A stretch of DNA of 33,231 nt, from contig JACPRK010000021.1 of the NCBI GenBank assembly GCA_016190005.1, positions 1-33,231 on the forward strand. The letters run 5' to 3'. Origin of the DNA: Candidatus Wallbacteria bacterium. GTDB lineage: Bacteria; Muiribacteriota; UBA6191; JACPRK01. A model generated the notes under the pieces. It saw nothing but the letters and a program-made list of their open reading frames with translations. It did no database searches and was not told the origin of the DNA. Each line of letters begins with the position of its first letter. Position 1 is the first letter of the stretch. Made by a program: the position numbers and the translations under genes. Of the stretch, positions 15,548 through 17,743 are shown one piece after another.

Positions 15548-17743
15548 ATGCGCTCTGCCCCGATGCTGTTGGCCATTTCGCTCGTCCTCACCTTGTCGGC
15601 CACACTTTGGGCCGGTCCGACCGTGCAGGTTCTGGCCACGTGCAAGCCGCCGGGGAGCTTGCGACCCAGCGGCATCCTCGAGCTCGTGACGAGCTCGGAC
15701 GGCACGGCGCGCCAGTACCTCCTGGAGCTCCGGGGCACGCACTACCAGATGGGCTATGCCCACGGGTTCCTGCTGGCCGAGTCGATCGCGCGCTACTACC
15801 ACGACTACTTCCGTGGAGCCTATCTCCCCCCCAAAAAGGCCGCCCAGCTCAAGGCCGGCGCCATCTTCAGCCTGCTACCCCGCAAGTACCAGGACGAGCT
15901 GCGCGGCATGGCTGAGGGCATTCGCGACCGCGCCAAGGAGCTGACGGCGGAGGGCAAGCCGGCCCCCCGCCCGGTGGGCCGCGACGAGCTCCTGCAGATG
16001 CAGTGCGAGGTCGAGCTGGCCGGCTTCGGCTGCACCGCCGTCGCCTCGTGGGGCTCCCGGACGGCCGGCGGCCCGCTCGCGGGTGCCACGGTCATCAGCC
16101 GCTCGGCCGACTGGATCGACGCGCATCCCGAGCGACTCTTCTCCGGCCTGCAAGGGACCATCTCCTACGCCAGCAGCGAACCCGGGGAAGCCGCCCTCGT
16201 GGCCAACTCCAGGGCCGGACTGATCGGCGTCCACACGGGCCTCAATGCCACCGGCTTCTTCATCGAGATGAACTACGCGCCGATCACGCCGATCCGCGCC
16301 GGCTCGTTCTATCCCTCGCTCCTGTATCAGCGGGATGCGCTCGAGGCCGTCGACGGTGCAGGCAAGGACCTGGCGGGCATCAAGAGCCAGCTCGACCCGA
16401 TCCTGGCGCGCTCCGACGTCATCCCGACGATCCAGCCGATGATCGGCTGGGTCTCCCGCGAACCGACCGGCGGGGTCGCCGTCATCGAAGGGATCGGCAC
16501 GCCGGGCGGCGCTACCTACCGTACGGTCGGCTGGGACCGCGCGAACCAGCCCGGTCCCGACGGCATCCCGCGCATCCGGCTCGCCTGGGCCACGAAGCAA
16601 CACCCAGGTGGGGCCGACACCGTGCTCGTAACGGACGGCTCCTTCCTCGGAGAGTGCTCGGAATCGCCTGCCGGCTCGGGCAAGTACGTGGTCGCCGACA
16701 AGGTAACCAACGCGAAGCTCTTCGAGTTCGAATCCGCCGATATCGTCGCCAGCCGCGCCAAGCCGGAGCTCTGGCTCTCGGCGAAGTGCCGCGGCGTCGG
16801 CGGCCGTTACGCCGGCAAGACCTGGTGGCTCGATAACGCCAGCCGGGGCCATTACGGCGCGCGCGAGGAGATCCATGGGTTCATCGGCCTGGGCCGGTTT
16901 CCACCCGCCAGGTTCCTGGGCGTCTGCGCCTTCGCGGTCGACGACGCCGGCAAGATGTCGAACAAGGGGTTCTGGATCTCGGCCGACCCGGCCGACCCGG
17001 CTTGCGGCGTGGCCGTGCTCGAATCGACCGGCACCCGCACGGTCGACGGCGTCTCACTGGAGGAGGGCAAGCTCCGCTTCGCGTCCACGGCCGCCAGTTC
17101 GACCTGGGGCACCGGCAGCTACGTCCGCTACGGCGACATCGCGCTCTTCGGCGACTACAACGACGATTCCGGCAGCCCGGCGGGTTCCTGGTTCTGTTAC
17201 GGAAACCCCGGTCCCAAGGACCTTCTGGTGAACGTCAACTCATGGTTCCTTCCGTGGACCGTCCCGTTCACGACCAAGCAGGACGATTGCATGGGCGGGC
17301 TCCACGGCGCGTACCGGCTCCATCGCGCCTACGCCGATTTCGCGGGCCGCGCGGACTTCACGCTCGCTTCGCACCACGACCGATTCACTCAGATGTATCG
17401 CGACCACATCGTCTTCGGCGCCTCCGACACGATGTCGCCCGGCGGCTCCATCTGCACAGCCAGCTTCGTCCCGAGCAGCCGGCGAATCCGGATCAGCTAC
17501 AGCACCCTCGTCGAGAAGTCGGGAAGCGGAACGGCTGAAAGCCCGATGACCGCCTACGCCGCGACCTCCACACGCGTCACGCCGATCGAGTATGCCTGGA
17601 ACGACTTCTTCTCCGGCGACCGCGCCCTGGCGGCGGCCCCGCCGTCGGCCACCGCGACGGCCTCCGCTCCCGCCCCCGCGCCGACCCAAGCGGCACCGTC
17701 GGGCACCGGCGGCGCCAGCAACCCCACGATGGGCCAGCCTTGA
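15548..17743 (+). CDS. Secreted protein: N-terminal peptidase C45-like (acyl-CoA:6-APA acyltransferase family) Ntn-hydrolase domain plus a roughly 400-aa C-terminal extension ending in an Ala/Pro/Thr-rich tail.
   Basis: The internal ATG at 15548 gives the signal peptide MRSAPMLLAISLVLTLSATLWAG. LRGTHYQMGYAHGFLLAESI resembles the conserved N-terminal GTPYE(I/M)GYxHG block of C45 proteins. About 100 aa later, AGFG|CTAVASWG fits the Gly-Cys autoprocessing site that exposes the N-terminal Cys nucleophile. The family call is from memory, not a search. The stop overlaps the TTG start of the 903-aa gene (TTGA 17740-17743). Confidence 0.5.
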   Translation: MRSAPMLLAISLVLTLSATLWAGPTVQVLATCKPPGSLRPSGILELVTSSDGTARQYLLELRGTHYQMGYAHGFLLAESIARYYHDYFRGAYLPPKKAAQLKAGAIFSLLPRKYQDELRGMAEGIRDRAKELTAEGKPAPRPVGRDELLQMQCEVELAGFGCTAVASWGSRTAGGPLAGATVISRSADWIDAHPERLFSGLQGTISYASSEPGEAALVANSRAGLIGVHTGLNATGFFIEMNYAPITPIRAGSFYPSLLYQRDALEAVDGAGKDLAGIKSQLDPILARSDVIPTIQPMIGWVSREPTGGVAVIEGIGTPGGATYRTVGWDRANQPGPDGIPRIRLAWATKQHPGGADTVLVTDGSFLGECSESPAGSGKYVVADKVTNAKLFEFESADIVASRAKPELWLSAKCRGVGGRYAGKTWWLDNASRGHYGAREEIHGFIGLGRFPPARFLGVCAFAVDDAGKMSNKGFWISADPADPACGVAVLESTGTRTVDGVSLEEGKLRFASTAASSTWGTGSYVRYGDIALFGDYNDDSGSPAGSWFCYGNPGPKDLLVNVNSWFLPWTVPFTTKQDDCMGGLHGAYRLHRAYADFAGRADFTLASHHDRFTQMYRDHIVFGASDTMSPGGSICTASFVPSSRRIRISYSTLVEKSGSGTAESPMTAYAATSTRVTPIEYAWNDFFSGDRALAAAPPSATATASAPAPAPTQAAPSGTGGASNPTMGQP

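Follow-up and report, generated by a model that had tools for sequence, protein, structure and literature searches.

A 33,231-nucleotide (nt) contig stretch (hereafter, the window; 68% GC), labelled by NCBI as 'Candidatus Wallbacteria bacterium', carries a gene for a hydrolase that we assign, with strong support, to the C45-type N-terminal nucleophile (Ntn) enzymes, followed directly by the gene of a 903-residue orphan protein with an apparently GspK-like N-terminus (hereafter, the giant). The hydrolase open reading frame (ORF) extends over 15494-17743 (+) and yields 731 residues when read from the ATG at 15548. This ATG is the likely start, because a Shine-Dalgarno-like GGGAGG is found 10 nt upstream of it, because the N-termini annotated by NCBI and those of homologues agree, among them that of the NCBI protein P0001 (98% identical to the hydrolase), and because it opens a typical signal peptide, MRSAPMLLAISLVLTLSATLWA. 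Third-position GC content picks out both 15494/15548-17743 (+) and 17740-20451 (+) as real genes, with a value of 0.88 for each. The two genes comprise the following features (L and P numbers denote, throughout, the homologous loci and homologous proteins used in comparisons):

15548..15616, plus strand: predicted Sec-type signal peptide, residues 1 to about 23 (hydrophobic helix; conserved in homologues)
15617..16030, plus strand: pro-segment and future alpha-subunit, residues about 24-161, including GTHYQMGYAHG (aligned to the NCBIfam model NF040521 and to AAT)
16031..16033, plus strand: codon of Cys162, the predicted N-terminal nucleophile, with the presumed self-cleavage site between G/A161 and C162 (conservation and alignment)
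16034..16537, plus strand: first part of the Ntn beta-subunit, residues 163-330 (near-invariant columns; NF040521 up to residue 266)
16538..17212, plus strand: inserted all-beta module, residues 331-555, about 14 strands, with conserved Cys460 and Cys486
17213..17623, plus strand: second part of the Ntn beta-subunit, residues 556-692, with LLVNVNSWF (Asn564) replacing TNH
17624..17701, plus strand: disordered Ala/Pro/Thr/Ser linker, residues 693-718 (predicted local distance difference test, pLDDT, below 50 from residue 696)
17702..17743, plus strand: conserved C-terminal peptide GTGGASNPTMGQP, residues 719-731, and the TGA stop
17740..20451, plus strand: the 903-residue orphan giant, its N-terminus apparently GspK-like, with a TTG start that overlaps the hydrolase TGA

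In the AlphaFold2 model the hydrophobic N-terminal helix spans residues 4-20; it is kept in homologues, with P0007 and P0008 carrying a lipobox in place of the signal peptide seen in the others. Full-length relatives of the hydrolase are very rare (3 among 5.8 billion proteins; 6 representatives with E<1e-30 among 1.84 billion), and L031, which is a distant member, carries the label 'Deltaproteobacteria bacterium'.

The fold and the active site strongly support the hydrolase being a C45-type (AAT-like Cys-Ntn) amidohydrolase/acyltransferase proenzyme. Its AlphaFold2 model (pLDDT 80.3, predicted template modelling score 0.82) contains the full alpha-beta-beta-alpha Ntn fold together with the N-terminal pro-segment, whose helices fall within residues 65-158, and the top structural match is the AAT precursor of Penicillium chrysogenum (2x1c, MEROPS C45), with 323/355 residues superposing at 2.5 Å. 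NF040521 (C45 family autoproteolytic acyltransferase/hydrolase) matched residues 62-266 with positions 1-182 of its 313 (E=1.9e-16), and the pro-segment aligns with positions 1-100 of this model and with AAT residues 7-102. A profile built from 61 relatives and searched against PDB sequences matched AAT (2x1c/2x1d; E ~7e-8), NAAA and acid ceramidase, and placed Cys162 against Cys103 of AAT and against the residues that open the beta-subunit of NAAA; this family profile was needed, as a direct phmmer search of the hydrolase against the same sequences returned noise alone (PsaH, Fab chains).

The original prediction of a secreted C45-like Ntn-hydrolase, which was read from GTHYQMGYAHG and an FGCTAV motif some 100 residues further on, stands, because an Ntn fold is predicted and Cys162 occupies the processing site, at the start of beta-strand 161-167. 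Both motifs are present, at residues 63-73 (nt 15734-15766) and 160-165 (nt 16025-16042), the second 86 residues after the first. As for the Gly-Cys activation site that had been proposed there, the Cys is invariant in the hydrolase family but the Gly is not, being Ala161 in P0002 and P0003, and therefore the Cys alone is fixed at the processing site. It is also strongly supported that Cys162 lies where family members self-cleave to expose their nucleophile, and that the catalytic apparatus, an Arg-x-x-Asp pair and two Asn residues, has been kept. In the first part of the beta-subunit, Arg185 and Asp188 (in SRSADW), Asn233, Arg262, Glu314 and Arg325 are near-invariant, and these six positions and C162 are conserved in at least 90% of 61 C45 sequences. 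By analogy with bile-salt hydrolase and NAAA, we take R185 and D188 to be the R-x-x-D pair and assign N233 and N564 their presumed roles, including that of the oxyanion Asn.

Among 1.84 billion representative proteins, a profile search returned 539 relatives, nearly all of them ordinary C45 proteins of about 420 residues that match residues 55-272, and a metagenome scan returned distant ordinary C45 genes alone. The ordinary proteins (NF040521) share the HYQMGYAHG-type and FGC[ST] motifs, the R-x-x-D pair and the Asn residues, and in most of them a hydrophobic, signal-peptide-like N-terminus is apparent, as in the hydrolase; they are 20-25% identical to it and are without the insertion, the tail motif, and the giant or pilin neighbours. 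Identity to NAAA and acid ceramidase, which are eukaryotic lysosomal Cys-Ntn acyl-amide hydrolases, is 13-14%. Against AAT it is 17%, with VNS here in place of TNH, and compared with that enzyme the bacterial, exported hydrolase adds a signal peptide, a 225-residue beta insertion, a tethered C-terminal peptide and a pseudopilin context. Its chemistry is likely to be non-peptide acyl-amide hydrolysis or transfer, judging by AAT, NAAA, acid ceramidase and the bile-salt and penicillin V acylases.

An ordinary-type C45 gene of a low-GC uncultured bacterium (L005, 9440-11389, +) encodes an extra N-terminal domain and a C-terminal sorting domain (...GIYFVKIDGKETIKVVKIK) resembling those of the type IX secretion system (T9SS), and a neighbour of this gene has the same kind of terminal domain. 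C45 enzymes seem to have been equipped with different export devices in different lineages.

The hydrolase had been described as an Ntn enzyme fused to a long extension and continuing for about 400 residues. In fact 569 residues follow Cys162, and the additional sequence is an insertion of ~225 residues (331-555) within the Ntn domain rather than a fusion to its end. The module is an internal insertion because, once residues 331-555 are removed, LLVNVNSWF (Asn564) aligns with the TNH of ordinary 420-residue C45 proteins, whose C-terminal part is matched by residues 556-692, which complete the Ntn fold. It bears weak similarity to the ligand-binding 8-stranded barrels of surface lipoproteins, and this barrel-like module may bind a substrate or a target.

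The end of the protein is rich in Ala, Pro, Thr and Ser, as was predicted (13, 8, 5 and 4, respectively, of the last 39 residues), and is disordered over residues 696-731 in the AlphaFold2 model. It consists of two parts: a linker of ~25 residues, which is rich in Ala, Pro and Thr where the locus has a high GC content and is acidic in L031 and L032, and a motif of 12-13 residues, GT[GP]Gx(1-2)SNP[TQ][LM]G[QL](P)-COOH, found at the C-terminus right before the stop in 8 loci. Among all the locus DNA examined, the motif is confined to these hydrolase C-termini. Near-identity of the high-GC loci at this position suggested an RNA-level element at the 3' end (frameshift or coupling), a possibility excluded by the different codons used in the low-GC loci. 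The codons of the peptide vary freely over a GC range of 0.44-0.69 (AAC/AAT, CCC/CCG/CCA, ACG/ACT, GGC/GGA/GGT), and these synonymous differences therefore point to selection on the peptide and not on an RNA element. Sortase, PEP-CTERM, GlyGly-CTERM and T9SS signals were also excluded, since no transmembrane segment, basic tail or C-terminal domain follows the motif.

The giant was found directly 3' of the hydrolase in all independent loci for which downstream DNA was available (6/6: the window, L001, L004, L006, L007 and L031). In the window the hydrolase TGA (17741-17743) overlaps, as had been noted, the TTG at 17740 that is the earliest possible start of the giant (TTGA), and in L006 the two genes share a GTGA. 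In L001, L004 and L007 an in-frame GTG overlaps the TGA; the annotated ATG of the giant, ~100 nt further on, would remove the basic N-region. In low-GC relatives the two genes are separated by 8 or 19 nt, the former in L031, whose giant is 47% identical. The sequence of L032 stops 78 nt after the hydrolase stop, and an ORF with ...SRSRKGIAI begins there. The coupling of the hydrolase to the giant that had been proposed is thus supported, and indeed strengthened, by adjacency in every such locus and by co-occurrence of tail and giant; the overlap of stop and start as a sign of this coupling holds in the window but not universally.

Identity among the giants is 47-58%, even where that among the hydrolases is ~35%. 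Searches of 5.8 billion sequences returned three giant clusters only (the window, L007 and L031), each on a contig that also carries a tail-bearing hydrolase, and the giant family appears to occur solely with such hydrolases. Neither giant nor pilin genes were found near the genes of the tail-less, lipoprotein-type P0007 and P0008 (4 loci), and a conservative pattern search found no ORF with a prepilin motif in 22 loci of ordinary C45 genes.

The N-termini of the giants carry the pattern [RK]-x-G-[IML]-A-[MLVI], followed by ~20 hydrophobic residues and then by an invariant SRENRFA[IV]RR. By eye, the motifs read RRAG/IAMF in L001 and L007, RSG/LALY in L006, RSG/MAVV in L031 and RKG/IAI in L032. 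We take this N-terminus to resemble that of GspK; the GGRAAFAIAL of the window giant is, by eye, a poorer fit to the GspK consensus. Pfam models gave no family for the giant at E<=1 and NCBIfam a spurious match only, and nothing was found with a profile of 6 giants searched against PDB sequences.

Two further genes lie upstream, on the opposite strand:

15021..15482, minus strand: GspI/PilV-like minor pseudopilin of 153 residues, G/VTLTE (N_methyl E=1.4e-5; weak TIGR02523 and gspI matches)
14215..15024, minus strand: GspJ-like minor pseudopilin, G/YSVLE (weak N_methyl and gspJ matches)

The divergent starts of the I-like gene and the hydrolase gene are separated by 65 nt, and a promoter and terminator scan of this intergenic region found nothing. 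With the J-like start set at Met139 of its long ORF, the J-like gene begins with an ATG that overlaps the I-like stop codon. Orthologues of the I-like protein occupy the same position in L004 and L001 (51-53% identity), as does a J-like orthologue in L004 (55%), and I- and J-like pseudopilins are kept upstream in the window, L003, L004 and L001. The module therefore comprises four genes in two pairs on opposite strands, one pair made up of the J-like and I-like genes and the other of the genes for the split C45 hydrolase and the giant.

A gene for an 860-residue bacterial homologue of Major Vault Protein (11545-14127, -; MVP_shoulder E=4.5e-26, with Vault_3 and Vault repeat matches) lies 88 nt 3' of the J-like gene. 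We excluded it from the module, as L004 has a SpoIIE/GAF/FHA protein in its place.

A second set of minor-pseudopilin-like genes lies at 4454-8279 (-) of the window, without a hydrolase. It encodes a 795-residue giant with a GspK-style N-terminus (RGSVVLYLVLALAIA), an I-like protein of 202 residues (GVTLFEVLL) and a 289-residue N_methyl protein, with weak matches to 'Verru_Chthon cassette' pilin-like families. The 903- and 795-residue giants share faint C-terminal similarity only (E=0.047).

Other filament systems suggest how such a module might work. In TcpF-TcpB of Vibrio cholerae and CofJ-CofB of enterotoxigenic Escherichia coli, the exoprotein has at one end a disordered peptide that serves as its export signal and is bound by the minor pilin at the tip (PMC9565799, PMC10120004, PMC6048534). 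The hydrolase resembles these type IVb pilus exoproteins in being a putative exported protein with a disordered, motif-bearing end that is encoded in an operon with a large putative minor pilin. TcpF and CofJ are colonisation factors, whereas the cargo here would be an Ntn enzyme whose docking is putative. The hydrolase has no Pfam match of any kind and has an Ntn fold, and therefore the likeness to TcpF and CofJ is one of mechanism and not of family membership. The module is also reminiscent of the GspK-GspI-GspJ tip: the I- and J-like genes have G/xxxxE prepilin motifs, and the giant has what looks like a GspK-style N-terminus, without Glu5. The giant differs from GspK in being ~3x larger and in matching none of the GspK models, and the module differs from the tip complex in its divergent gene order; the window has no G/H pseudopilin or machine genes (no GspD/E/F/O-like gene among them). 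A literature search found no paper that links C45 enzymes with pseudopilins.

We tentatively propose, at a little short of an even chance, that the hydrolase is an amidase which passes through Sec, activates itself and uses its tail to dock on the GspK-like giant at the tip of a filament, and is exported or displayed there in the way that TcpF is by TcpB. The signal peptide would be removed after Sec export, and self-cleavage between G161 and C162 would generate an alpha-subunit of ~15 kDa and a beta-subunit of ~60 kDa. The tethered C-terminal peptide would dock onto the co-translated giant. The giant and the GspI- and GspJ-like pseudopilins, whose genes are divergent from its own, would make up the tip of such a filament, of type IV (a type II secretion system, T2SS, pseudopilus or a pilus), and growth of the filament would export or display the amidase. 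The docking and export steps are proposed because tail and giant co-occur, because the tail-less controls are also without a giant, and because of the TcpF-TcpB and CofJ-CofB precedent. The stricter statement that the C45 amidase is a dedicated passenger of the orphan giant as tip pseudopilin, held by the C-terminal export peptide GTGGxSNPTMGQ to make an enzyme-armed type IV filament, we regard as rather doubtful. In a bolder version, either the tail or the giant might donate or accept an acyl group at the Cys-Ntn site and thereby be attached covalently, in the manner of a sortase.

Several observations weigh against the tail-docked, filament-borne amidase. The pilin-like nature of the giant is suggested by just its N-terminal motif and its neighbours, and the GspK, T2SSK and N_methyl models of Pfam and NCBIfam do not match it. 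The 33-kb window contains no gene for a secretin, an ATPase, a platform protein or a prepilin peptidase. The signal of TcpF and CofJ is N-terminal and the peptide of the hydrolase C-terminal, with no homology between the proteins. Regarding the enzyme itself, its NF040521 score of 60.3 bits is below the curated cut-off of 85, and remains so with the insert deleted (62.9 bits); ordinary relatives straddle this cut-off (P0014, 63 bits; P0018, 93.8 bits). Pfam AAT (PF03417), the profile proposed for checking the original prediction, gave no match at E<=1 for the hydrolase, for its insert-deleted form or for ordinary relatives.

The synteny, finally, would be the same if the enzyme acted catalytically on filament proteins, and this is the basis of an alternative that we consider unlikely, in which the Ntn enzyme is a maturation or remodelling factor that trims, deacylates or transfers acyl or peptidyl groups on the giant or the pseudopilins, with the tail serving for targeting only. 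Such a factor would equally be expected to show the synteny and the co-occurrence of tail and giant, the giant family is seemingly found solely with this enzyme, and C45 enzymes are acyltransferases too (by the name of NF040521 and by AAT being the top structural match). However, the characterised members of the clan (AAT, NAAA, acid ceramidase, bile-salt and penicillin V acylases) use small acyl-amides and not proteins, and we know of no proteolysis among them other than self-cleavage. Furthermore, the second K/I/J-like set of the window (4454-8279) is without such an enzyme, and no modification site is evident in the giant.

It is similarly improbable that the hydrolase is an ordinary exported amidase, co-regulated with a T2SS-like system or a conventional substrate of it, with no docking by the tail, which would serve stability or another receptor. 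A signal peptide is predicted, the C45 relatives are for the most part secreted proteins that stand alone (with a T9SS-type C-terminal domain in one case), and secreted enzymes are sometimes encoded beside T2SS genes, all as this explanation would have it. Against it, the pairing is strict over a GC range of 44-69% and down to ~35% identity, always with an NTGA overlap or a gap of at most 19 nt, and tail, giant and pilin genes are all jointly absent from the four tail-less loci. A catalytically dead structural adaptor, an Ntn-fold protein used as a tip or adhesin subunit in which the inserted beta module does the work, could account for the size of that module and its weak likeness to ligand-binding barrels of surface lipoproteins, for the replacement of the His of TNH by Ser or Asn and for the score under the NCBIfam cut-off, but is very improbable and the least likely of the alternatives, because Cys162, Arg185, Asp188, Asn233 and Asn564 are all invariant in the family.

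How cargo is recognised by the T2SS and by secreting type IV pili is a long-standing open question, and to our knowledge the N-terminal peptides of TcpF and CofJ are the only linear signals defined so far. Comparative genomics alone here yields a candidate, with a peptide of 12-13 residues on a flexible tether, an orphan giant, and natural tail-less controls without the giant. Should the peptide bind the giant, it would represent a second class of export signal read by a filament, and the cargo would be unusual, being a cysteine amidase that activates itself and contains a new inserted domain. An enzyme-armed filament, if true, would give the TcpF/CofJ signal a C-terminal equivalent and would be the first instance in which a pilus tip delivers or displays an Ntn-hydrolase. 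If the peptide does not bind the giant, the locus would still be a clean example of a domain-inserted C45 enzyme, from a family of which we know almost no characterised bacterial members. The enzyme is set apart from its C45 kin by the insertion in the Ntn core, the tethered C-terminal peptide and the obligate pairing with an orphan giant pseudopilin-like protein; while the enzyme family is ordinary, the peptide and its pairing with the giant provide a concrete lead on cargo recognition by type IV filaments.

Genes for PMT_2/TMEM260-like glycosyltransferases recur near members of the hydrolase family (window 31578-33200, -; L001 5747-7729, -; L029 3808-5349, -; L030 5990-7531, -), including at the loci of the tail-less P0008. 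This recurrence may be a coincidence, or may reflect glycosylation of exported proteins, for example at the Thr/Ser/Pro linker.

Elsewhere in the window, GC content is highest at 3000-4400 (0.72), where long overlapping ORFs occupy both strands; the ORF at 3024-4325 (-) has no Pfam or NCBIfam match. The 548-residue product of 8498-10144 (-) is a MORN-repeat protein similar to the LIC20035 adhesin family (NCBIfam E=1.5e-28, below the cut-off), and 22787-24475 (+) encodes a protein of 562 residues in which a Tim44-like domain (E=1.2e-26) is followed by a C-terminal zinc ribbon.

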